Assembly: GCA_964429815.1 (NCBI GenBank)
Contig: CAYSCM010000001.1
Span: forward strand, 164,240-228,239
Direction of reading: 5' to 3'
Source of the DNA: an uncultured Candidatus Saccharibacteria bacterium
Lineage (GTDB): Bacteria; Patescibacteriota; Minisyncoccia; Phycocordibacterales; CAYSCM01
Length of the DNA: 64,000 nucleotides
Part shown: piece after piece, positions 2,926 through 58,893 of the stretch
Layout: each line of letters begins with the position of its first letter
Position numbering within the stretch: the stretch's first letter is position 1
Position numbers and translations under genes: made by a program
The notes under the pieces: generated by a model
Database searches by the model: none
Seen by the model: only the letters and a program-made list of their open reading frames with translations
Told to the model about the DNA's origin: nothing

Positions 2926-4199
2926 GTATCGATTCTTTTCTCAACCTCATTCGACCTCTTATCCCGAAGCCGCTCTTTCGCTTGCTCATTTCTCCCTACC
3001 ACTTTCTTCTCGCGTACGCCGGCGCGCTGAAATATGGCTTTCCCTCAGGCTCTCTTGTCGTCATCGCGGTCACCGGAACGAAGGGAAAGACGAGCACCAC
3101 CGAGCTTCTCAATGCCATCCTGGAAGAGGGCGGCGAAAAAACCGCGCTCGCCAACACTATCCGTTTTAAAGTAGGTACCGATAGCCGTCGCAATCTTTTC
3201 AAAATGACGATGCCGGGGCGCTTTTTCCAACAGCGCTTCCTTGCGCAGGCACGCGACGCCGGGTGCCGCTACGCGATTATGGAAATGAGCTCCGAGGGTG
3301 CGCGCCAACATCGCCATCGTTTCATTGATCTCGATGCGCTTATTGTCACCAATCTTGCGCCGGAGCATATAGAATCCCACGGTTCCTTCGAAGCCTACCG
3401 CGCTGCGAAGCTTTCGATCGGGGTACAGCTTGCGGCCTCCCGCAAAAAGCGCCACCTGCTTGCTCTCAATGCCGATGACGAAAATCTACAACCGTTTTCC
3501 AAACTCCCCGGCGTCGAACTACTTCCCTACTCTCTCGGGAAAGTGGTGCCCTACCGCGGCGACGATTCCGGAAGTGCATTCACCCTCGAGGGTACGACTA
3601 TCCTTTCTAAACTCCCCGGTGTCTTTAACATCTACAACATGCTCGGCGCGGCGACACTCGGGCGCGCACTCGGCGTTCCGCTCGAAACCGTGAAGCACGC
3701 CCTTGAGCGTGTCGACACCATCGCCGGCCGTGCCGAGCGCATCGAAGAAGGTCAAACCTTTCCCGTCATTGTCGACTACGCTCACACACCCGAATCGCTG
3801 GAAGCTCTCTACAAAGCATTCGATGGCTATCGGCGCATCTGCGTGTTAGGAAATACCGGCGGCGGCCGCGACCGCTGGAAGAGACCAAAAATGGCCGCTA
3901 TTGCGGATTCCTACTGTGACGACATACTCCTCACCAACGAGGATCCCTACGATGAAAATCCGCGCGCTATTCTTGCGGATATGGAGAGCGGCATCACGAA
4001 GCGCACTCCGAAGATCGTACTCGATAGACGCGAAGCGATTGCGGAAGCACTTGCGCTCGCGAAAAGCGGCGGCGCGAAAAACGCGGTGCTCATTACCGGT
4101 AAAGGAACAGATCCCTACATCATGGAAGCTCATGGAAAAAAAACGCCCTGGAGCGACGCCAGCGTTACCCGCGAAGAACTTAAGAGGTTGCGCGCGTAG
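2922..4199 (+). CDS. Mur ligase family protein (MurE-like UDP-MurNAc-peptide ligase)
   Basis: P-loop VTGTKGKTSTTELL, DYAHTPESLEAL, NEDPYDENP. The N-terminal region is atypical and hydrophobic. ATGA overlap with ruvA. Confidence 0.7.
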   Translation: MSIDSFLNLIRPLIPKPLFRLLISPYHFLLAYAGALKYGFPSGSLVVIAVTGTKGKTSTTELLNAILEEGGEKTALANTIRFKVGTDSRRNLFKMTMPGRFFQQRFLAQARDAGCRYAIMEMSSEGARQHRHRFIDLDALIVTNLAPEHIESHGSFEAYRAAKLSIGVQLAASRKKRHLLALNADDENLQPFSKLPGVELLPYSLGKVVPYRGDDSGSAFTLEGTTILSKLPGVFNIYNMLGAATLGRALGVPLETVKHALERVDTIAGRAERIEEGQTFPVIVDYAHTPESLEALYKAFDGYRRICVLGNTGGGRDRWKRPKMAAIADSYCDDILLTNEDPYDENPRAILADMESGITKRTPKIVLDRREAIAEALALAKSGGAKNAVLITGKGTDPYIMEAHGKKTPWSDASVTREELKRLRA

Positions 4200-4223: not shown

Positions 4224-5174
4224 ATGGCAGAAGGAGGTGGTGGCAAAGGCGCGGGCAGCGATGCACTCTTTGTCATCATGGTGCTGGTCGTCCTCTTTAT
4301 CGTTTGGGCGGCAAGCGGTGGCATCGAGCGGGCCCGCCAAGACCCCGGCTACTTCTTGAAACCTCCAGCGCCGCTCGGCTCCGGCGAGGTCTACGGCAGC
4401 TCTCTGACGCAAGGAGTGCACCAAACCGGAGACGCCATTTCTCAGAGCCTCTCGCAAGCGCAAAGCGAGCTCGGCACAAACATTCCCGTTGGAACACTCT
4501 CTCCGTATCACGGTCTCGTCCATCTCACGACCATAAGCGGTGCAGGTAGCTTCGAGCCAGCGCAGGAATACGTCGAGATCGACTACAACGGGGAGGGTTC
4601 ACAATCTATACCCGTTACGGGATGGCGCATTGTAAGCGCGGTCAGTAATTTCTCCGCCGTACTCCCGCTTGGCACCCGTATCCCCAACTCCGGCGCGCTC
4701 TCCTACACGGAGCCCATATACCTGCGCCCGGGAGAACAGGCCTATATCGTGACCGGCCGCTCGCCCATCGGCTACTCGTTCCTCACCAACAAGTGCGTGC
4801 CATACTTCCAGCAGTTCCAGAACTTTTATCCGAGCCTCTTTAATTCCTGCCCCTACCCGACAGACGAGCTCCTGCGCTCACAAAACCAAGCCGTCCACAC
4901 CGACAACGCCTGCTACGACTTTGTCTCGACGCTTTCCTCTTGCCGGATCTATCTCACACCGCTTGACCCATCGCTCTCCGGAAGCTGCCAGAATTTCGTC
5001 GCTAACACGCTCACTTATACCGGCTGCGTGGAGAATCATCGCGCCGATGCCGACTTCTACGGGCACGACTGGCGAATCTACCTCAATCGTGACCAGTCGC
5101 TCTGGCGGGATCGTCGCGAAGTCATTAAACTCCTCGACCAGAACGGCCGCACGGTCGACGTGTTGACCTACTAA
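4224..5174 (+). CDS. membrane-anchored protein with a lamin-tail-like (LTD) domain and a Cys-rich C-terminus
   Basis: N-terminal TM segment LFVIMVLVVLFIVWAA. EYVEIDYNGEGSQSIPVTGWRIVS resembles the LTD signature. Confidence 0.45.
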   Translation: MAEGGGGKGAGSDALFVIMVLVVLFIVWAASGGIERARQDPGYFLKPPAPLGSGEVYGSSLTQGVHQTGDAISQSLSQAQSELGTNIPVGTLSPYHGLVHLTTISGAGSFEPAQEYVEIDYNGEGSQSIPVTGWRIVSAVSNFSAVLPLGTRIPNSGALSYTEPIYLRPGEQAYIVTGRSPIGYSFLTNKCVPYFQQFQNFYPSLFNSCPYPTDELLRSQNQAVHTDNACYDFVSTLSSCRIYLTPLDPSLSGSCQNFVANTLTYTGCVENHRADADFYGHDWRIYLNRDQSLWRDRREVIKLLDQNGRTVDVLTY

Positions 5175-6412: not shown

Positions 6413-6416
6413 CAAG

Positions 6417-6490
6417 TCCGCCCGGCAGGACTCGAACCTGCGACCTTCTCCTTAAAAGGGAGCGGCTCTACCAAACTGAGCTACGGGCGG
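6417..6490 (-). tRNA. tRNA-Lys, anticodon TTT
   Basis: 74-nt cloverleaf. CCGCCCG/CGGGCGG acceptor, GCTC/GAGC D-stem, loop CTTTTAA, T-arm GCAGG-TTCGAGT-CCTGC, discriminator A. Confidence 0.9.
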
Positions 6491-6503: not shown

Positions 6504-6533
6504 TTATAGCGAAAGGATGAATTGCTCAAGCGG
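6504..6533 (-). repeat. displaced copy of the holA-like 3' end (encodes PLEQFILSL-stop)
   Basis: The minus strand reads ccg ctt gag caa ttc atc ctt tcg cta taa. Compare the real gene end at 8450-8479 (ALEQFILSI-stop) and the copy at 7483-7512. Confidence 0.65.
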
Positions 6534-6568
6534 AAAGGAAGAAACCCCACTTGCGTGGGGCTTCAAGG

Positions 6569-7198
6569 TTAACCTTCGTTCTCGAATCTCTCTTTAACGA
6601 AAGTAAGGAACTGTGAACTTACGACCGTCATGGCGGTCATGAGGCCGTATAAGATTACGAAGGTTATCACGGTCCAGAATGTTGACAGGGTCCTGCTGAA
6701 GATGGTCATCCAAGCGAAATAGAATACCATAACTGCGATGAGCCAGCTGCCAACATCCAAGTTGCGAAGTGTTATGGGACGAAGCCATTCGCATCGTTCG
6801 AAATACTTCGGCTTGCACTGCGCCCGAACATAAAAACGGGTAATGATCGCAGCGATGCCGAGGGCACTCATGAGAACAAACCACCAGTGTGATAATTCTC
6901 CCATTTTCAGTATCGCAGCGTACTCCAAGAAACCTAGCATGTAGGGAAATGCAACATCGGGGAAACGTGGTGTCGTTCTCATAATGAGTATCCACCAAGA
7001 GTATTCCGTTACTACCAGAAGTATTGCACACAATACTGCAAAAGCTTGAAGATAGAGCAACACGGACTCTTTTGTTTCTGCCATCCTCAAGATCAATCCA
7101 CCAAGAGCGATGCTTTGGATTACTCCAAGCGAGGTGAGGTATGAAGAGGCAAAAAGTTCTTCAGAACGTCTCCGGAACTCGGCAGCATTTAGGGGCAT
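6569..7198 (-). CDS. multi-pass membrane protein of unknown function (cassette 1)
   Basis: ATG at 7198 preceded by GGAGG. Several hydrophobic helices. An intrinsic terminator (ccccac-ttgc-gtgggg plus T-run on the minus strand) lies at about 6541-6562. A paralog lies at 7547-8177. Confidence 0.6.
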   Translation of the reverse strand: MPLNAAEFRRRSEELFASSYLTSLGVIQSIALGGLILRMAETKESVLLYLQAFAVLCAILLVVTEYSWWILIMRTTPRFPDVAFPYMLGFLEYAAILKMGELSHWWFVLMSALGIAAIITRFYVRAQCKPKYFERCEWLRPITLRNLDVGSWLIAVMVFYFAWMTIFSRTLSTFWTVITFVILYGLMTAMTVVSSQFLTFVKERFENEG

Positions 7199-7314
7199 GA
7201 CAGCCTCCATAGTCGGTTAGAACTTTTCGAAGCGACCTTACCGCAGAATCTTGCAAAAATCAATAAATATGTTATCATACTTTCTGGCAAGCTAGATTTT
7301 TGAAGGAGACGCAG

Positions 7315-7431
7315 ATGCAAGAAAGCCCTCAAAAGGAACAGGGGTTTTGGGATCGGTGGGGTACTCTGGTCTTCATCGGTCTACTCTTTGGGACCATGGC
7401 TGTAGTCGCGGCAAGCAAGCACTTCGCTTAG
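7315..7431 (+). CDS. 38-aa single-TM peptide (MQESPQKEQGFWDRWGTLVFIGLLFGTMAVVAASKHFA)
   Basis: Below the ORF-track cutoff. GAAGGAG Shine-Dalgarno. Upstream TTGCAA-16nt-TATCAT promoter-like site. Downstream hairpin ggcccc...ggggcc plus T-run. A paralog lies at 8285-8392. Confidence 0.5.
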   Translation: MQESPQKEQGFWDRWGTLVFIGLLFGTMAVVAASKHFA

Positions 7432-7482
7432 CGTCCCACGAACGGGCCCCGATGGTTTTTCATTGGGGCCTTTTCTTTTTCC

Positions 7483-7512
7483 TTAAATAGAAAGAATGAA
7501 ACGCTCAAGCGC
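7483..7512 (-). repeat. displaced copy of the holA-like 3' end (encodes ALERFILSI-stop)
   Basis: The minus strand reads gcg ctt gag cgt ttc att ctt tct att taa. Confidence 0.65.
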
Positions 7513-7546
7513 GAAAAAATAAGCCCCGCATACGCGGGGCTCGGGT

Positions 7547-8177
7547 TCAGCTTTGGCGTTCAAATTCTTCCTTAAGCGACCTGAGGAAGTTTGAACTTAT
7601 GATGGCCATCGAAACCATGAGGCCGTACAGGATGATGAAAGTTGTCACGGTCCAAAACGCTGACAGTGTTTTGCCAAAGATGGCCATCCATAGAAAATAG
7701 AAGGCCATCACAGCTACGAGACCACTGCCAATGTCAAGGTTGCGTAGCGTCAGTGGCCGGACCCGGTCGCATTCTTCGAAATATTTTGGTTCGCATTGCC
7801 CTCGTACGTAGAAGCGCGTGATGATCGCTATGACGGCTGAGGCGGTCATACTGATATACCACAGGGGTTCCTTGCCTATCAGCCAGCGCAATCGACACAT
7901 ACTCAAGGATTCCTAGCAGGTACGGAAAGACCGCGTCGAGAAAACTTGGTGTTTTCCTCATAATTATTAGCCACCAAGTATATTCAGTTACCACCAGAAG
8001 TATTGCAAGTATTGCGGTCATGCCTTCTAACATGAGAACTGTTGAGGTTGGCGATTCAGCTATTTTTAGTACGAGTCCACCAAGGGCGACACTTTGAATT
8101 ACGCCGATCGAACTGAGATAAGACCCTGCAAACATTTCCTCGGAACGTCTTCTGAATTCCGCTGCGTTTAAAGGCAT
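7547..8177 (-). pseudogene. frameshifted paralog of the 6569-7198 membrane protein (cassette 2)
   Basis: ORFs 7734..8177 and 7547..7906 together align with the intact paralog. The frame switches near 7881-7886 (ctggctgat). A single extra nucleotide explains it. An assembly error cannot be excluded. Confidence 0.6.
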
Positions 8178-8284
8178 CGATACCTCCTTAGATCAGATTC
8201 GGGGCAAGTTTACAGGAAATATTGTAAAAATCAATAAATGTGATATAACTGGCTTGAAAGTTCTACTTCTTATTGGAGGTATCC

Positions 8285-8392
8285 ATGGCCCGTGAATCCA
8301 AAGGTTTCTGGCAAACCTGGGAAGCTCCTATTGGGGCTGCACTTATGCTCCTGGTACCCGCCATAGTGTTGGTTCTACTCATCAAATGGTGA
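8285..8392 (+). CDS. 35-aa single-TM peptide (MARESKGFWQTWEAPIGAALMLLVPAIVLVLLIKW)
   Basis: GGAGG Shine-Dalgarno, TTGTAA-16nt-TATAAC promoter-like site, downstream hairpin aggccc...gggcct plus T-run. Shares the GFW-x2-W motif with the 7315 peptide. Confidence 0.5.
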   Translation: MARESKGFWQTWEAPIGAALMLLVPAIVLVLLIKW

Positions 8393-8449
8393 GGAAAACG
8401 AAACCAACTCGAAGAGGCCCGTCGCTTCAGCTGGGCCTTTTCTTTTTTA

Positions 8450-9157
8450 TTAAATCGATAAAATAAATTGCTCAAGCGCGACGGGGAGTTCGTGTTCTCC
8501 GCGACGAGCGTCGTGGTAGAGGCGGACAAGCTCGTGGGAGAGTGTCAAAAGCTCTTCTCGCGTGTAATTTTTCGCAAAACTATGTGCTTTTGAAAATACA
8601 AACGGCGAAAGCCCGCTCTCTTTGGCATTTTTCGAGGCGCTCGCGAGGAGCATCCCTTTCACGATCCAAAAGAGCATTCCGTGAAGCTGCTCCTCCTCGG
8701 CGCCGGTTGCCCGCGCCTTTTGATACAAGACCCAGGCATTTTTCCGATCACGGCGACCGAGGGCGTCAGTGAACGCAAACACGTCAAACGATTCCTTCTT
8801 TCCCTTCGGCAACTCAACGATTTCTACTTTTTCTGCATGCCTTTCGATCTTTTTTTTAAGTTCGGCCTTGGGTTTGCTCTGAAGCACGATAAAAATATTT
8901 TCCGACTGCGCAAAATCAGCGATCTTCTCAGCAACAGACCCATCGGCCTCCTCTAAAAGTTCATCGAGGACAATCACAATTTTGTCGTGAAAGAGGTCCT
9001 GCGCACCCGCGTATTCTTCAAGCCTTCCGCTCTCAAGATCCTCGGGGGTTATGCGCACGATGGATGGCTCATCGTAGCGACGACTCAGCCCTTCGGTGAG
9101 GGTATCGAGTTTTTCGAGCGCTTTCGCACGGTCATTGCCAATAATTGCGTAGAACAT
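8450..9157 (-). CDS. holA: DNA polymerase III delta subunit (HolA)-like protein
   Basis: Size, position next to polA, and weak family resemblance (MFYAIIGNDRAKALEKL..., helical C-terminal half). No strong motif. Confidence 0.45.
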   Translation of the reverse strand: MFYAIIGNDRAKALEKLDTLTEGLSRRYDEPSIVRITPEDLESGRLEEYAGAQDLFHDKIVIVLDELLEEADGSVAEKIADFAQSENIFIVLQSKPKAELKKKIERHAEKVEIVELPKGKKESFDVFAFTDALGRRDRKNAWVLYQKARATGAEEEQLHGMLFWIVKGMLLASASKNAKESGLSPFVFSKAHSFAKNYTREELLTLSHELVRLYHDARRGEHELPVALEQFILSI

Positions 9158-9158
9158 A

Positions 9159-9581
9159 CTAGTAGCAAAGATTTATACACTCTTCCAAATCACCAATAAG
9201 TGGCAGACCCTTTGCCGCCGTTGGCTTAACCCAGCGAAATGCTTTGTGAGATTTCGGATCGATAACAATCTCTTCGGAGGGAGCACGGAGCTTATACATG
9301 TGATAGCAAAAATCGTACTCCGGATACGAAACAAAGACTTCCTGTATAAACTGCAGAGCATCGCCCGGCACGATCATGCCCGTCTCTTCCTTAAGCTCAC
9401 GCCTCAGTGCGTCGACGATTGATTCTCCCTTTTCTCGCTTGCCGGCAGGAACGCCCCAGGTGTTTCCTTGGGGCTTAGTATCCTGCCGCAGGAGGAGTAA
9501 AATTTTTCCCCTGTTTTCCACAAAACAAGAGACAACATCAAAGAGAGGGTCGAATGTTTTTGGTTTTTCTATATAGAGCAT
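9159..9581 (-). CDS. NUDIX hydrolase
   Basis: Nudix box GKREKGESIVDALRRELKEETGM. Confidence 0.85.
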   Translation of the reverse strand: MLYIEKPKTFDPLFDVVSCFVENRGKILLLLRQDTKPQGNTWGVPAGKREKGESIVDALRRELKEETGMIVPGDALQFIQEVFVSYPEYDFCYHMYKLRAPSEEIVIDPKSHKAFRWVKPTAAKGLPLIGDLEECINLCY

Positions 9582-11989
9582 CAGAGTTTAATTTTTTGAA
9601 GCTCTCCCCACGAGCGACCACTGTGCGGCACTGCTTCAAAAAGAATGCCGCTTGTTTCTTTGCGAGGAAGAATGTTTTCCATTACTTCTTTAATTGCCTT
9701 TGCGATTGCCTTTACTTTTTTTTCTTCAACTTCGTAGACCAATTCATCGTGCACCTGAAGAAGAAGGTGCGCTGCACTGGCTTCCCCCATATCCTTAAGC
9801 TTCTCCTCCCCTTTGATCATGGCGAGCTTTACGATATCGGCCTCCGTTCCCTGGATGGGGGCATTTATGGCCATGCGTTCGGCTTGTGCGCGGATATAGG
9901 GAAGCGGTGATTTGAGCCCGGCAAAATAGCGTCGGCGACCGTAGTAGGTCTCAGTATAGCCCTTACGCTCTGCATCGGCCTTGGTGTGGTCGAGGTAGCG
10001 CGCAAGAGTCGCAAAGTTTTTGAAATATTCGTTGAGAAACTTCTGCGCTTCAGCGCGGTCGGTGCCGAGGTTAGCGCGAAGCGCATTGACGCCCATACCG
10101 TAGAGAATGCCGAAGTTGATGACCTTTGCACGACGGCGCATTTCATAGTCCACCTGCTCCTCGGGAACATTAAACACCTGCGCCGCGACTACTGCGTGGA
10201 CATCCCTCCCCGAGCGGAAAATATCGGTGAGCTTTTCATCCCCCGAGAGCCATGCCGCAATGCGAAGCTCGATTTGTGAATAGTCGAAGGTGAGCAGTTT
10301 ATAGCCGGATGGAGCGATGAACGCATGGCGTATCGCGCGCCCTAAATCGCTACGTATCGGTATGTTTTGAAGACCAGGATCCTTGGTGGCCATACGACCC
10401 GTGGCGGACCCGGCTTGAAGAAAGGTCGTATGAATGCGACTTTCCCTGTCGGCAAGCTCGGGCATGGCATCGATGTAGGTGCCGAGGAGTTTGGCGAGTT
10501 CACGGTACGAGAGAATTTCGCCAATGATCGCGTGCTCCTCGCGAAGCTTCTCGAGTTCCGATTCCTTGGTCGTGCGCTGTCCTCCTGCGGTTTTCTTGTG
10601 ATTCTTGAGCGCGAGGCCGAGCTTGTCGAAGAGAATGACGCCGAGCTGCCGCGGCGAGTTAATGTTAAATTCCTCGCCCGCGAGTTTGTAGATCTTCTTG
10701 CCGAGCGTGTCGAGCTCGTGGTGGTACTCCTTTGAAAGTTTTTTGAGGTACGGGATATCAATAAGAACACCGCGCGCCTCCATCTTCTCAAGAATCGGTA
10801 TGAGCGGCTCTTCGATTTCTTTGTATACCTTCTCGAGCTTTTGTTTTTTGAGCTCCGTAAAGATTTTTTCCTTGGCCTCCGAAAATTTTTTCGTCTTACC
10901 GTAGAGAAGGATGTCATCAAGTGTAGGATTGGTGATGTCGGAGTTGAGGAGCCACAGCGCAACCGCCGCGCGCTTTCGCTCGCCTGCCGCAACTTCTTCG
11001 GGAGCCTCTAGAGAGCCCTCCTCTGCCCCAGCCCCGTTGGTGAGGTCGAGCGTTTTGGTGCCGAAGAGCCCTTTTGCACGGGCAACGAGCGAGCGGAATT
11101 CGAAATCAGAGAGGGTGCGCGCAACCGTATCGAGGTCGAGATTTTCTCGGAAGGATTTTTCAGGAAGCTTCCAGGCGATCGGCGCATCGCGATGAATGGT
11201 CGCGAGCATTTTGCTAAACTGCGCCTCCTCCTCGTTCTCTTTCAAGATCTCTTGAATGCGCGGTGTTATGCCCACCTTGGAAAATTTGTCCGCAGATTTT
11301 TTGTCTTTGAGCGCCTTATAAACGCCGTCGACGGTGCCAAAATTTTTGATAAGTGCTGTTGCGGTCTTCTCCCCGATGCCGCGCACGCCCACAATGTTGT
11401 CAGAGGGATCACCACGGAGCCCTTTATAGTCGGGAAGTTGCTCCGGCGAGAAGCCGAAACGCTCCACGACCGCGTCCTCATCGTAAAAGACTGTATCCTG
11501 GAGCCCTTTGCGCAGCGTAAAGACGCGCACGCGAGAGGTATCGACAAGCTGAAGCGTATCCATATCACCGGAGGCAATGACTACGTCGAGATTTTTCTCC
11601 TTCTTTAATTTTTCAGACAGTGTACCGAGAATGTCATCGGCCTCGAATCCTTCTTTTTCATAGATCGGAATCCCGAACGCCTCGAAAATCTCCCGCGAGC
11701 GCTTAATCTGAGAAATGAGGGCGGGATCGAGCTTCGGGCGCTTCGCTTTGTATTCCTTGTACGCCTCATGACGATAGGTGGGGCCCGGAAGATCGTAGGC
11801 GGCGACGATGTAGTCGGGTTTGAGCTCGGAGACGATACGCATCAAAAATGCCGCAAGCCCGTAGAGCGCACCCGTCGGCTCGCCTCTGCTCGTCGTGAAC
11901 TCCGGAAGGGCGTGGAAGGCGCGGTGGATGATGGCGTGCGTATCGAGGAGAACAATGCGTTTTTTTTCTTTTTTAGCGGTTTTCGGCAT
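9581..11989 (-). CDS. polA: DNA polymerase I
   Basis: 5' nuclease N-terminus (RIVLLDTHAIIHRAFHAL) and family A polymerase motifs (DYSQIELRIAA, QVHDELV). Start taken at ATG 11989 (MPKTAKKEKK), overlapping the tsaE end. Confidence 0.9.
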   Translation of the reverse strand: MPKTAKKEKKRIVLLDTHAIIHRAFHALPEFTTSRGEPTGALYGLAAFLMRIVSELKPDYIVAAYDLPGPTYRHEAYKEYKAKRPKLDPALISQIKRSREIFEAFGIPIYEKEGFEADDILGTLSEKLKKEKNLDVVIASGDMDTLQLVDTSRVRVFTLRKGLQDTVFYDEDAVVERFGFSPEQLPDYKGLRGDPSDNIVGVRGIGEKTATALIKNFGTVDGVYKALKDKKSADKFSKVGITPRIQEILKENEEEAQFSKMLATIHRDAPIAWKLPEKSFRENLDLDTVARTLSDFEFRSLVARAKGLFGTKTLDLTNGAGAEEGSLEAPEEVAAGERKRAAVALWLLNSDITNPTLDDILLYGKTKKFSEAKEKIFTELKKQKLEKVYKEIEEPLIPILEKMEARGVLIDIPYLKKLSKEYHHELDTLGKKIYKLAGEEFNINSPRQLGVILFDKLGLALKNHKKTAGGQRTTKESELEKLREEHAIIGEILSYRELAKLLGTYIDAMPELADRESRIHTTFLQAGSATGRMATKDPGLQNIPIRSDLGRAIRHAFIAPSGYKLLTFDYSQIELRIAAWLSGDEKLTDIFRSGRDVHAVVAAQVFNVPEEQVDYEMRRRAKVINFGILYGMGVNALRANLGTDRAEAQKFLNEYFKNFATLARYLDHTKADAERKGYTETYYGRRRYFAGLKSPLPYIRAQAERMAINAPIQGTEADIVKLAMIKGEEKLKDMGEASAAHLLLQVHDELVYEVEEKKVKAIAKAIKEVMENILPRKETSGILFEAVPHSGRSWGELQKIKL

Positions 11990-21325: not shown

Positions 21326-22426
21326 TTAACGATTCATCGGCATGACGAGATAAAGAAACGATGCATCGCCCACACCTCGTATGACGAGCGGCTTGCCTGG
21401 TCCACCAAAGGTAAGGGTGAGGCTATCAGTGGAGATTGATTGGAGACAGTCGGAAAGGTAGCGATGGTTGAAGTGTATATCGAGTGATTCTCCGGATAAG
21501 GTTGCGGGTATCTGCTCCTCTATTTCACCGATATCCGCATTCCGGGAGCTTAGGGTAAATGCTTTTTTGTTTGGTTTGAGCGAGAAGGATACCTGATTGA
21601 ACTTATCGGAAAATACGACAGCGCGCTTAAGAATGGCCATGAAATCGGCTTTAAGGAGCACAGCCTCAGTGACTCCCTCTTTGGGAATTATTTGTCGATA
21701 GTCCGGGAAGGTGCCGTCGATGAGCCGTGAGGTTATGAACACCCGCTTAAAAGAGAGCGAGAGTTGGTTTTTTGAGAAGGAGATATTCAATTCAGCATCG
21801 GCTTCCTCGAGAATTTTCGCTATCTCAATGGCATTTCGTATGGGAAGTATGAGGGGATCGAAATCGACGCTCTTCTTTTCGGGAACTATTTTCTCCGCAA
21901 GCCTAAATGAATCCGTTGCTGCAAAGATGAGGCTTCCATTATGGTGATAGATATAAATACTGCAAAGCTCGGGTTTGATTGATGATGTTGAAGCGCTGTA
22001 GGCAACGGCTCGTACACCACGAGCGAGTATGTCGGGTTTTATGGAGAGCGACTTTCCGCCGGAAACGTAGGGGAGGTGAGGAAAATCGGCCGCTGCTTGT
22101 CCCTTGATTGTTGTTGTACTGCCTTTGGTTTCCACCTTAAGGTTCCCTTCAACTCCTACTAATCGCACCGGGGTTCCTGATGGTGTGGTATTTACCACTT
22201 GTGAAAGGATGTGTCCTGGTACCGCAACTACTCCTTCGGTCGAAACTTTAGCCGGTACTTCAACCTCTATCCCAAGCTCGAGGTTGGTAGAGCGAATGAG
22301 AAGGTTGTTCTTTCCTGCAACGATACAAAGGCAGGAGAGTACCGGAAGGGTAACGTTGCGCCCCGTTGCTCGTTCTGCGAGACCAATGGCCCTCTGGAGT
22401 TCTTCGCTTCGTACCTCAACCTTCAT
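21326..22426 (-). CDS. dnaN: DNA polymerase III beta sliding clamp
   Basis: 366 aa, three-domain length, directly downstream of dnaA. MKVEVRSEELQRAIGLAERA... Confidence 0.9.
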   Translation of the reverse strand: MKVEVRSEELQRAIGLAERATGRNVTLPVLSCLCIVAGKNNLLIRSTNLELGIEVEVPAKVSTEGVVAVPGHILSQVVNTTPSGTPVRLVGVEGNLKVETKGSTTTIKGQAAADFPHLPYVSGGKSLSIKPDILARGVRAVAYSASTSSIKPELCSIYIYHHNGSLIFAATDSFRLAEKIVPEKKSVDFDPLILPIRNAIEIAKILEEADAELNISFSKNQLSLSFKRVFITSRLIDGTFPDYRQIIPKEGVTEAVLLKADFMAILKRAVVFSDKFNQVSFSLKPNKKAFTLSSRNADIGEIEEQIPATLSGESLDIHFNHRYLSDCLQSISTDSLTLTFGGPGKPLVIRGVGDASFLYLVMPMNR

Positions 22427-22663
22427 ATATATGATTTTTAAATGAATTTAAAGAGATATTTCTATTTACTCTGTGGAAACCGTGAATAGTCATTGTAAGC
22501 TTTTATTTCAAGGGAATTTTTACGTTACTATATTCCTACTATGTGGATAGAATGCGTATTTCTCACTCAATAATCCCCACTCCCCGCTCATTTTATATTT
22601 TCAATCATCTTATGTACGCATAATTGTCGTTGTATCCATCGGCTACCAACGCACTCTCCACAC
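22427..22663. other. candidate oriC (AT-rich unwinding region plus DnaA-box-like 9-mers)
   Basis: AT-rich 22425-22470. TGTGGATAG 22540-48, TGTGGAAAC 22470-78, CTCTCCACA 22652-60, TAATCCCCA about 22569-77. Located in the dnaA-dnaN intergenic region. Confidence 0.55.
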
Positions 22664-24049
22664 TTATTTCAACATTCCCCGTATCTGCTCTATTTCCTGG
22701 GTGAGAGTAGCATCGACCTTGAGATCGTTTTTTATCTTTTCACACGAGTGAATCACGGTCGTATGGTCGCGACCACCAAGCCGTGAGCCTATTGTGGGGA
22801 ATGATACATGAAAATCCTCACGAAGAATGTACATAATGACTTGCCGCGGGCGCACCACCTCCTTTCGGCGCGTTTTTTCATAGATGGACTCTTCAGGGAT
22901 GTCATAAAAATCGGCGATTTTCTTGATAATCTCCTTTGTGGAGACTAATTTTTTTGGTCGCGATGACAATTTAATAAGATTTTTTACCTCAGGGAGCGTC
23001 AAGGTGCGTCCCTTAAGTTGTGACTGCATAACGACGGCGTTGAGCATCCCCTCGAGCTCTCGGATGTTGGCGACGATGGTTCCCGCGAGGTGCTCGAGGA
23101 GCTCATGGTCGAGGAGATAGCCTTGCTGGAGCGATTTTGTCTTGAGAATTGCCATTCTCGACTCGAAATCCGGCTCCGGTATGTCGACAATCATGCCGCC
23201 GGAGAAACGCGACTTAAGGCGGTCGTCGATATGCTGGAGCTCGGAGGGGTGCTTATCCGAGGAAAAGACTATCTGTTTGTTGTTGTCGTGGAGGACATTG
23301 AAGGTGTGGAAGAGCTCATCCATGGAGCGCTCTTTCTGCGAGATGAATTGCACGTCGTCCATGATGAGCACATCGTACTGGCGATACTTTTCCTTAAAGC
23401 CTGTGAAATTCGTGCTCTGCACCGCAGCGAGGTAGTCCATGACGAACCGCTCCGAGGTCACATAGTAAATTTTTTTACCCGAATGAGCTTTTTTTATCTG
23501 GTTCCCTATTGCTTGGATGAGATGAGTTTTACCTCGGCCCGTCGCGCCGTAGATAAAGAGGGGGTTGTAAGCGATCCCGGGCTTTTTGACGACCGCTTGC
23601 GCCGCGGCGAACGCGAGCTCATTAAACGGCCCGACAACGAAGGTGTCGAAGGTATAGCGGGGGTTGAGGTTGTCGCTTTTGTTTATGTAGTACTCGGAGA
23701 GGGGCAGCTCTCCGGTAAGAAGGACATTGGGCCGTGGAGCCTCTTCTTCAGAGCGCGTGCGGCCCCGGCTTATCGTGTATTCAAGCCCGCGGATGTGAGT
23801 ACTGGCGCTCCGGAGCGCCTTGAGTATGAATTTGTGGTACTTTTTTGAAAGCCAATCACGGACGAACTGGTTCGGAACGGCCAAAAACACCACGCCGTCC
23901 TCGATGCGCGCGATCGACGTGTCTTTAAACCACGTCGTGAAGTTCGGTTTTGAGATGGAGAGCTCTATTTCGACGAGGACGTTCTGCCATAGCTCCTTCG
24001 TATCGATTTCCTCTACGACGACGCCAGCATGCGTATCAACCCCATCCAT
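22664..24049 (-). CDS. dnaA: chromosomal replication initiator DnaA
   Basis: AAA+ motifs GATGRGKTHL, LIMDDVQF. C-terminal DNA-binding helix GGRDHTTVIHSCEKI. Confidence 0.95.
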   Translation of the reverse strand: MDGVDTHAGVVVEEIDTKELWQNVLVEIELSISKPNFTTWFKDTSIARIEDGVVFLAVPNQFVRDWLSKKYHKFILKALRSASTHIRGLEYTISRGRTRSEEEAPRPNVLLTGELPLSEYYINKSDNLNPRYTFDTFVVGPFNELAFAAAQAVVKKPGIAYNPLFIYGATGRGKTHLIQAIGNQIKKAHSGKKIYYVTSERFVMDYLAAVQSTNFTGFKEKYRQYDVLIMDDVQFISQKERSMDELFHTFNVLHDNNKQIVFSSDKHPSELQHIDDRLKSRFSGGMIVDIPEPDFESRMAILKTKSLQQGYLLDHELLEHLAGTIVANIRELEGMLNAVVMQSQLKGRTLTLPEVKNLIKLSSRPKKLVSTKEIIKKIADFYDIPEESIYEKTRRKEVVRPRQVIMYILREDFHVSFPTIGSRLGGRDHTTVIHSCEKIKNDLKVDATLTQEIEQIRGMLK

Positions 24050-57981: not shown

Positions 57982-58893
57982 ATGGCCGACCTTGAGACGC
58001 TCAAACGCCAGTTCCTCGAACACCTTGAGATAGAAAAGGGCCGCTCGCTCAAGACGATCGAAAATTACGATCGCTACCTCTCGCGCTTCCTCGATTTCAC
58101 CAAAACGAAATCCCCCAAAAGCATCTCGGACGATTCGGTGCGAGAATTCCGGCTTTGGCTCAACCGCCAGCCAGGCGGCGGCAACGAGACGCTCAAGCGC
58201 AAGACGCAAAACTACTACCTCATCGCGCTTCGCGCGTTCCTCAAGTACTTGCGCAAGCGCGGCATTGAGTCCATCTCCCCGGAGCGCATCGAGCTTGCCA
58301 AAGTATCGCAGCGGGAACTCGATCTCATTTCAGGAAGCGAACTCGAGCGTTTGATGAAAGCACCGGAAGAGAACACTCTCTCTTCCCTTCGCGATCGCGC
58401 CATCCTTGAGCTTCTTTTTTCGACCGGATTGCGGGTGTCAGAGCTCACCTCGCTCAATGCCGACATCGACTTGGGGAGCGACGAGCTTTCCGTGCGCGGC
58501 AAGGGCGAAAAAATACGCGTGGTGTTTCTCTCCCCCTCAGCCAAAGATGCCCTGAAAAAGTACCTCGCGAAACGAAAGGACATGGACGAAGCGCTCTTCG
58601 TGCAGATGGGAAAAAACGCTAAAGGAGTGAGTGAACTTCGCCTCACCCCGCGCTCCGTCGAGCGGCTCGTGAAACGCTACGCGATAAAGGCCGGCATCAC
58701 GCGCAAGGTGACCCCGCATGTCATCCGTCACTCCTTCGCCACCGACCTTCTTCATAATGGCGCGGACCTTCGAAGTGTGCAGGCGATGCTCGGGCACGCC
58801 AACATCGCGACGACGCAGGTCTACACACATGTTACCGACAAGCACCTACGAGACATTCACAAACATTTTCACGGGCGTAAGCGTCGCTCCTAA
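57982..58893 (+). CDS. tyrosine recombinase, XerC/XerD family
   Basis: N-terminal SAM-like domain. Catalytic region RHSFATDLLHNGADLRSVQAMLGHANIATTQVYTHV. Confidence 0.9.
   Translation: MADLETLKRQFLEHLEIEKGRSLKTIENYDRYLSRFLDFTKTKSPKSISDDSVREFRLWLNRQPGGGNETLKRKTQNYYLIALRAFLKYLRKRGIESISPERIELAKVSQRELDLISGSELERLMKAPEENTLSSLRDRAILELLFSTGLRVSELTSLNADIDLGSDELSVRGKGEKIRVVFLSPSAKDALKKYLAKRKDMDEALFVQMGKNAKGVSELRLTPRSVERLVKRYAIKAGITRKVTPHVIRHSFATDLLHNGADLRSVQAMLGHANIATTQVYTHVTDKHLRDIHKHFHGRKRRS

Follow-up and report, generated by a model that had tools for sequence, protein, structure and literature searches.

How can an essential replication gene stay intact when other genes have been inserted into its last codons? 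The question is raised by a stretch of 64,000 nucleotides (nt) from an uncultured Candidatus Saccharibacteria bacterium (contig CAYSCM010000001.1), called the window here. In the window, the insertion target holA, which encodes the delta subunit of DNA polymerase III (9157..8450, minus strand, 235 amino acids), is separated by 1.98 kb from its conserved downstream neighbour, a tRNA-Lys(ttt) gene (6416..6490, minus strand) that forms the right edge of the insertion site. The interval is made up of two cassettes that belong to one small family and have diverged from each other. Read along the minus strand, the order is holA, tail copy A, cassette 2, tail copy B, cassette 1, tail copy C, 13 nt and tRNA-Lys(ttt), where each tail copy corresponds to the last nine codons of holA and a stop.

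The arrangement of these copies shows that the cassettes sit within the final 30 nt of holA, that the gene has been completed by a partly cassette-derived tail, and that its older ends have been pushed downstream. It is proposed, with a probability of about 0.6, that the cassettes represent a new variety of gene-end-restoring integrative element, and that the array grew by accretion of cassette-plus-tail units.

Three copies of the holA tail

Database matches indicate that the holA gene call is genuine. The Pfam domain DNA_pol3_delta_C covers residues 125-234, to model position 120/121, and the NCBIfam holA model matches with an E value of 9e-19 at a score under its curated cut-off. Despite the insertions, holA is full length and its C-terminus carries the family motif. 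Searches found 69 holA homologues, and at least 25 of those read have the common C-terminal motif; ALE[QRK][FL][IV]L.. followed by the stop is conserved at the end of about 160 holA genes. The repeat is thus a holA coding tail and not part of a conserved terminator, an alternative that an earlier note on this DNA had raised.

Copy A (8479-8450, minus strand; ALEQFILSI-stop, GCGCTTGAGCAATTTATTTTATCGATTTAA) is the functional end of holA. Copy B (7512-7483, minus strand; ALERFILSI-stop, GCGCTTGAGCGTTTCATTCTTTCTATTTAA) stands at the junction between the two cassettes, and copy C (6533-6504, minus strand; PLEQFILSL-stop, CCGCTTGAGCAATTCATCCTTTCGCTATAA) precedes the spacer and tRNA-Lys. These are the coordinates given in the earlier note, and all of them hold. 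Copies B and C are in frame and each has a stop; the tail start-to-start spacings are 967 and 979 nt. A codon-degenerate tail pattern, YTNGARCRNTTYATHYTNWSNHTNTRR (L-E-Q/R-F-I-L-S-I/L-stop), has exactly three matches in the 64 kb, which are copies A, B and C, and none in 100 shuffles of the window. Furthermore, 1.4 Mb of related loci contained no 30-mer within seven mismatches of a holA tail beyond genuine tail duplicates. Chance is therefore excluded as the source of the tail copies.

Comparison with a relative whose holA is 74% identical (locus L175) reveals a mosaic. The intact tail of L175 (GCGCTTGAGCAATTTATCCTTTCGCTATAA, L175 844-873) is identical to copy C at 28/30 nt. Divided into halves, it matches the left half of copy A at 15/15 nt and the right half of copy C at 15/15, compared with 10/15 for the right half of A and 13/15 for the left half of C. 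As the left half of A and the right half of C equal the two halves of one intact tail, the mosaic looks like the product of reciprocal crossovers, with both events between tail nt 15 and 18. The right halves of copies A and B, both of which end ...SI-stop, are cassette-borne, so that the right half of the present last nine holA codons is cassette-derived. Copy C is the displaced original holA end, as its match to the L175 tail indicates, and the spacer that follows it aligns with an empty site, described below.

The earlier note had interpreted the remnants as displaced gene ends, each insertion having brought a replacement 3′ end. This interpretation is strengthened by the empty site, the near identity of copy C to a relative's tail, and the tail mosaic.

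The holA–tRNA-Lys site in related genomes

A tRNA-Lys(ttt) gene lies 3′ of holA in most of about 160 Paceibacteria/Parcubacteria loci, at a distance of 2 to about 5600 nt and in either orientation. At the same position in five loci (L062, L094, L050, L080 and L086), ARAGORN names a 'tRNA-Stop(tta)'.

Locus L007, whose holA is 66% identical, represents an empty site: holA ends ...ALERLILSL-stop and is followed by TAATGTTGGCGAGTAA, 13 nt in all, and tRNA-Lys. Copy C and its 13-nt spacer align with this site. In L004, L005 and L088 (holA 74% identical), the interval holds a gene for a 219-amino-acid methyltransferase, the start of which overlaps the holA stop. The gap between methyltransferase and tRNA-Lys in L004 (9365-9410; ...GGCTATATTGACGGCACTT) also aligns with copy C plus spacer and is a probable decayed holA-tail remnant. 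If this remnant is real, the holA site has a third type of cargo in the methyltransferase. Occupancy of the site is thus variable among related genomes, as the earlier note had proposed to ask: it is empty, holds a methyltransferase or holds two cassettes.

Also in L004, the 3′ end of tRNA-Lys (gagtcctggtgggcggac) occurs at 9466-9484 and again about 155 nt downstream, at 9622-9645, with a hairpin between; it is a small footprint resembling an attachment (att) site, of a past element using the tRNA itself.

A second, independent duplication of the holA tail occurs in L131 (590-619 and 1291-1320). It starts at the same codons, GCG CTT GAG, and flanks unrelated cargo. The 671-nt insert contains, by reading, a carbamoyltransferase-like C-terminal fragment, together with a 134-amino-acid open reading frame (ORF); 1 kb further lies a reverse-transcriptase-like ORF with a YFDD motif (L131 2402-3265).

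A search for the cassette proteins beside holA ends elsewhere had been suggested in the earlier note. A tblastn search of the 160 holA-flanking loci gave no match, so the cassette is not a common occupant of the holA site; relatives do exist, at the ends of other genes. Two further candidate tail duplicates were set aside: a holA tail repeated identically, but inverted, at the opposite end of a 3-kb contig (L156, 82-111 and 2960-2989), a probable assembly artefact, and a 9-mismatch 'remnant' in L094 that is not distinguishable from chance.

Anatomy of the cassettes

The two units of about 0.97 kb are homologous end to end, with about 65% nt identity (invariant columns of the alignment). Tandem Repeats Finder reported no array, because the copies are too diverged. 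In the direction of holA, one unit comprises the 30-nt tail, a hairpin, a plus-strand peptide gene, a divergent promoter, a minus-strand membrane protein gene, a terminator, and then the next tail. The GC content of the cassettes is 0.45-0.49 against 0.52-0.59 in the flanks, i.e. 5-8 GC points lower. The window cassettes have no terminal inverted repeats.

Cassette 2 starts with the hairpin ggccc-N12-gggcc (8416..8437), which was read from the sequence between the stops of holA and of the peptide gene and is homologous to 7444-7471. It is a probable bidirectional terminator and the probable left end of cassette 2. In cassette 1, the left end is marked by the homologous segment, 7444..7471, a predicted terminator hairpin on the plus strand. 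Both left hairpins are predicted to be able to terminate holA as well as the convergent peptide gene. The two peptide genes are convergent with holA, have good Shine–Dalgarno sequences, and encode products with a polar N-terminus and one transmembrane (TM) helix: peptide gene 2 (8285..8392, plus strand; 35 amino acids, MARESKGFWQTWEAPIGAALMLLVPAIVLVLLIKW) with the Shine–Dalgarno sequence GGAGGT, and peptide gene 1 (7315..7431, plus strand; 38 amino acids, MQESPQKEQGFWDRWGTLVFIGLLFGTMAVVAASKHFA) with AAGGAG.

The divergent promoter regions of about 110 nt occupy 8178..8284 in cassette 2 and 7199..7314 in cassette 1. Their core is the best-conserved non-coding stretch of the unit, with 86% identity between 8218-8246 and 7247-7275; in cassette 1, TTGCAA-16-TATCAT at 7251-7278 would serve the peptide gene.

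The membrane protein gene of cassette 1 (6569..7198, minus strand) is intact and encodes 209 amino acids, predicted to form six long helices in a TMEM175-like fold. A predicted terminator hairpin (6541..6564, minus strand) follows it and abuts tail copy C. The counterpart in cassette 2 (7547..8177, minus strand) is broken by a +1 frameshift near 7869-7880 into fragments 8177..7734 (147 amino acids) and 7906..7547 (119 amino acids), catalogued as P0002 and P0072; its predicted terminator hairpin (7521..7542, minus strand) is homologous to 6541-6564 and abuts tail copy B. Across the locus, three Logan assemblies, each from a different run, match the window at 100% identity, frameshift included, and so provide no independent comparison. 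The presence of the frameshift in all three indicates that it is real and that the membrane gene of cassette 2 is a pseudogene or a split gene.

The anatomy set out in the earlier note is largely upheld. Its claim of own promoters and terminators, made for cassette 2, agrees with the conserved divergent promoters and predicted hairpins. The membrane proteins, estimated there as about 70% identical, are 63-66% identical as measured. The two cassettes do carry a homologous gene pair, but the note had missed the frameshift in cassette 2.

The terminator-to-tail junction is likewise homologous in both cassettes (alignment columns ~940-1016). It was thus passed down from a shared ancestral cassette in which a holA tail was already present, as expected for a circularly permuted unit.

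As to function, the cargo membrane protein appears TMEM175-like in fold only. It has no Pfam match at E ≤ 0.1 and received no annotation from NCBIfam, and a profile of 55 family members searched against the PDB matched no TMEM175 chain at E ≤ 10, giving only spurious matches to G protein-coupled receptors. No catalogued model of an anti-phage defence or toxin-antitoxin protein matched, as PADLOC returned nothing for the cassette protein or its close homologues; a PDC-S02 match covers only the N-terminal Mrr_cat part of distant fused homologues. These distant members (P0082, P0087) possess an N-terminal Mrr_cat / NA-iREase1 nuclease-like domain, and other members have N-terminal extensions of at least 300 amino acids, with no Pfam match among those scanned. 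The fused nuclease-like domains hint at a conflict-system context, and a channel-like effector with a small TM peptide partner is a guess at what the cargo may be.

The cassette family at other gene ends

A single-sequence, word-indexed search for homologues of the membrane protein found the window proteins only, and an exhaustive profile search was needed. It recovered 267 relatives at E ≤ 1e-3, of which eight were at E ≤ 1e-30. Genomic contexts of the 35-40%-identical homologues were read, with about seven family loci inspected and gene tables over 4-6 kb for six. A small TM peptide gene lies divergent from the membrane gene, an architecture present in five loci besides the window. Seven cassettes have a common promoter layout, TATATCA..TTG-N7-CAA..TGnYATAnT, in which TTG-N7-CAA corresponds to overlapping back-to-back -35 boxes and an extended -10 follows.

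The cassette family was found in at least five different target genes, also on other CPR-type contigs. In L169/L170, the tail of a YkuD-domain gene, IGTKVVVRD-stop, is duplicated across the cassette (36 nt) with eight nt differences, all synonymous. In L171, the target is cysS, with the tail YEVTDTAEGPKVTPRE and stop repeated as the remnant YEVTDTSEGPKVTPRE and stop, over 64 nt. In L168, the end of a thioredoxin-like gene is duplicated over 109+ nt. The N-terminus of the L171 membrane gene is frameshifted, and the L172 copy is truncated and has no peptide gene. Such frequent decay, seen also in window cassette 2, fits a dispensable mobile element, possibly a selfish one.

A generic 1.5-Mb scan for tail duplications gave no further cases. 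The tail-duplication signature is rare in general and strongly associated with the cassette family. Separately, the polA 3′ end in L140 is duplicated at 3288-3358 and 4646-4716 (71 nt, 97% identical), the 1358-nt insert containing two unrelated minus-strand genes; this is the same signature, recent and with other cargo.

Synonymous bias between paired tails

For each pair of tails, codons that differ synonymously were counted against codons that differ non-synonymously, and the counts were compared with 5000 random-substitution simulations. In the window, the ratios are 3:1 for copies A and B (P = 0.003) and 3:2 for copies A and C (P = 0.014), in agreement with the earlier note's remark that the ends differ mostly at synonymous positions. 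The holA tails of L131 give 2:1, with P within 0.003-0.014. The bias is much stronger at other family loci: 7:0 in L169 and 6:0 in L173, for each of which none of the 5000 simulations was as good, 5:1 in L171 (P = 0.004), and 10:1 in L168, counted by hand. Summed, the tail differences comprise about 36 synonymous to 6 non-synonymous codons.

A neutral remnant would gain non-synonymous changes and lose its stop. The bias therefore implies that, in every pair, the two copies have each evolved as the end of a functional gene. Most simply, the cassette-borne tail would have come from the orthologous gene of another lineage by horizontal transfer. In line with this, copies A, B and C are as distant from one another (6-7 nt) as from the holA tails of unrelated lineages (5-8 nt), and the cassettes have a lower GC content.

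The neighbourhood of holA

The dnaN and dnaA genes (window 21326-24049) lie about 15 kb from the cassettes, and the locus is therefore probably near the replication origin. Between polA and holA, the window carries a NUDIX gene (9159..9581, minus strand; region 9143-9584), which is not present between these genes in L007 or L004. The stop codon of polA runs into the start of holA in L007 (ctcTAATGCTCTACGCAATT); in the window, it runs into that of the NUDIX gene (ctcTGATGCTCTAtatag), and holA begins anew with ATGtTCTACGCAATT. The NUDIX/holA junction is an 8-nt 'head' duplication, which suggests that the NUDIX gene was inserted at holA codon 3 by mirror-image logic.

A proposed mechanism

It is proposed that the mobile unit would be a cassette together with a captured gene tail. 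It would probably move as a circle in which the terminator of the membrane gene is joined to the start of the tail, would spread between related genomes, and would integrate in Campbell fashion, recombining over the short stretch of conserved tail in the orthologous gene. The target gene would stay intact, and the two tails would differ as orthologues do, synonymously. The array in the window would result from two successive integrations, i.e. accretion, or from the import of a ready-made array. The recombination enzyme would act in trans, the candidates being a host Xer-type tyrosine recombinase or RecA/microhomology. New targets might be reached when an excision is imprecise and takes along the end of a neighbouring gene. 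The most speculative step concerns the cargo, which is probably a conflict or addiction module that pairs a channel-like effector in the membrane with a small peptide acting as regulator or antidote.

Several observations weigh against this proposal. Only about seven family loci were inspected. In L173, the two mreB tails (YKKAIISKR-stop, six synonymous differences) are both found to one side of the cassette, separated by 74 nt, and neither L174 nor the truncated L172 has a tail duplicate. The orientation of the cassette relative to its target gene varies, and in L171 it is inverted. No circular form, excision junction or population heterogeneity was found in the three extra assemblies, which are identical to the window, and in viral contigs neither a relative of the membrane protein nor an attP resembling the holA tail was found. 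No recombinase domain was found in any cassette ORF with Pfam, PADLOC or NCBIfam, and no recombinase can be assigned to the cassettes. The identical tail blocks of 9-20 nt are short for RecA-type recombination, and a by-eye search that included the cassette ends found no motif common to the target tails for one site-specific enzyme. The function of the cargo is drawn from a resemblance of fold only. Finally, copy C and the L175 tail are 93% identical, compared with 70% for the whole holA genes (43% at third positions), a difference not expected if a 'native' tail had simply been inherited vertically. The tails themselves may circulate between lineages, with the cassettes.

A bolder extension can be put forward only tentatively, with the odds somewhat against it: that the cassettes define a new class of minimal element in the candidate phyla radiation (CPR)/Patescibacteria, about 1 kb in size and recombinase-less, for which a captured, recoded tail provides the homology to insert and to retarget. 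Literature searches turned up no account of this cassette, nor of recoded tail duplicates in CPR bacteria.

Alternative explanations

The main rival holds that the cassettes are remnants of the type known as cis-mobilizable elements (CIMEs). Integrase-bearing islands specific for the holA 3′ end, or for cysS and ykuD elsewhere, would have decayed to att-flanked cargo, and a second island would have integrated into the regenerated att site by accretion. The target end is directly repeated, the gene is restored, integration genes are missing, and a partial copy of the target lies within the tandem array; these traits all match the accretion of CIMEs and of integrative and mobilizable elements (IMEs) (PMC5704250) as well as stacked tycheposons (10.1101/2020.12.28.424599), and both window crossovers fall in one 3-nt interval, as a site-specific enzyme would give. 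However, decay would have had to bring six independent loci in five target genes down to exactly one type of two-gene unit, with no other content left between the repeats. Within 4-6 kb of the six family loci, and around the window cassettes, there is no integrase, which accords with the earlier note's claim that the cassettes carry no recombinase; the only recombinase in the window, of the Xer type, lies about 50 kb away (57982..58893). No intact parent was found among the 160 holA loci, around the six family loci or in viral contigs, although these collections are incomplete. The explanation needs such parent elements, and it remains the principal competitor while being considered unlikely.

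Less probable still is tandem duplication in situ, in which a single cassette was copied by unequal crossing-over between tails and the copies then diverged in place. An unequal crossover between copies A and C would yield the order A-cassette-B-cassette-C, with B a hybrid of the left half of C and the right half of A, and the end-to-end homology of the cassettes, terminator-to-tail junction included, is also what this would give. Yet the cassettes differ at about 35% of nt and 34-37% of protein positions, and over such a time decay of the non-coding copies B and C would be expected. In fact, ALERFILSI-stop can still be read in B, and C is no more than two changes away from the functional tail of a relative. 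The cassettes are absent from relatives whose holA is 66-74% identical, and a duplication diverged by 35% should predate those splits; moreover, the first insertion is left unexplained. The distance between the cassettes, the nearly intact remnants, the relatives without cassettes and the shared terminator-to-tail junction point to two diverged members of a holA-associated cassette lineage that were stacked successively or imported as an array. The earlier note's argument for old or independent acquisition, as opposed to recent duplication, is supported by the same evidence.

A long target-site duplication is regarded as very improbable. Here, a transposition-like or repair insertion would have copied 30-125 nt of the target, after which the functional copy drifted synonymously and the remnant neutrally. 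Direct repeats of variable length (30, 36, 64, 71 and 109+ nt) do flank the inserts, the L140 polA tails are still 97% identical, and the same signature occurs with unrelated cargo in L131 and L140. Neutral drift of one copy is nevertheless disfavoured by the balance of 36 synonymous against 6 non-synonymous codons, with ratios of 7:0 and 6:0 for the most diverged pairs; there are also no terminal inverted repeats and no transposase.

The lowest probability is given to exploitation of the host Xer/dif system, in the manner of integrative mobile elements exploiting Xer (IMEX). The 30-nt tail would act as a dif-like site for a XerC/D-type recombinase, as for CTX and TLC at dif or for pdif modules, and both the tandem array of recombinase-less modules and the Xer-type gene at 57982..58893 would suit this. 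It was rejected on position and on the diversity of target sequences: the site is a holA coding end about 15 kb from dnaA/dnaN and not at the replication terminus, the tail has by reading no dif-like 11-nt arms with a 6-nt spacer, and family members occupy the unrelated tails of cysS, ykuD and a thioredoxin-like gene. The Xer/dif-type site suggested by the earlier note in GCTTGAGC is not supported.

Two further candidates were rejected, namely an integron cassette (the units have their own divergent promoters, no intI is nearby, and the repeats are gene tails and not attC) and a transposon with target-site duplication (there is no transposase or terminal inverted repeat, and the repeats of 30-109 nt differ synonymously).

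Significance

CPR/Patescibacteria genomes are tiny, and gene exchange among them is poorly understood. To our knowledge, few recognisable mobile elements have been described for these bacteria. The locus offers a concrete route, by which gene-sized, recombinase-less modules can be stacked in the end of an essential replication gene without damage, and the same module occurs in other housekeeping gene ends of other genomes. If the cassette-plus-tail unit is mobile, it would represent a minimal form of site-directed integration in which a protein-constrained gene tail is the address label, and gene ends would serve as portable attachment sites without a dedicated integrase. Synonymously differing duplicated gene tails are a simple, searchable signature for insertions in metagenomes. 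A further outcome is a new membrane protein family with about 270 members, which is linked to contexts of mobility or conflict and for which a TMEM175-like fold is predicted with confidence.

Comparison with known systems

The cargo can be compared with the six-TM potassium channels of the TMEM175/DUF1211 family (PDB 5vre, 6w8n, 6hd8), whose six-TM fold is found in the prediction. Unlike in TMEM175, the TM1 FSD signature is not present by reading, and a small TM peptide partner and a mobile context are not TMEM175 features.

Among small modules, IMEX at dif and the pdif modules of Acinetobacter plasmids are Xer-dependent. The cassettes resemble them as recombinase-less, array-forming modules with bounding sites of about 28-30 nt, but the sites here are unrelated gene tails and not dif-like. 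Tycheposon arrays in Prochlorococcus islands (10.1101/2020.12.28.424599) provide a likeness in that they, too, occur in streamlined genomes. Tycheposons come with recombinases of the tyrosine or serine type and with replication modules, and they mostly target tRNA genes, whereas the window cassettes have neither recombinase nor replication module.

CIMEs and their tandem accretion are known from streptococcal systems that involve ICEs (integrative and conjugative elements) and IMEs (PMC5704250; Pavlovic 2004 and Bellanger 2011, as reported in PMC5704250). Bounded by att sites and devoid of genes for integration or transfer, they build up tandem arrays at the regenerated att of a gene 3′ end; similarly, each window cassette stands between direct repeats of a tail and is free of mobility genes. 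CIMEs derive by decay from identifiable ICE or IME relatives in the same species, whereas here no parent was found and the minimal two-gene unit recurs intact at different targets.

In their logic, the cassettes follow gene-end-restoring islands. Phage 21 and e14 in the icd 3′ end of E. coli supply an alternative icd end that differs mostly synonymously. In such islands, as in the window, the target is split, a replacement end is supplied, the displaced fragment lies at the far end and relatives have an empty site; the replacement end is conserved in protein and diverged synonymously. Gene-end integration with restoration is also represented in the Islander catalogue of tDNA islands (PMC4383910). 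These islands measure 10-100 kb, carry their own integrase by att, and have one fixed target per integrase lineage, whereas the cassettes are about 1 kb, have no element-encoded integrase beside the att-like repeats, and place one cargo family in several target genes. What is new in the present elements is their minimal size without a recombinase, the presence of one cargo family in at least five gene ends, and a clean signature of synonymous recoding.

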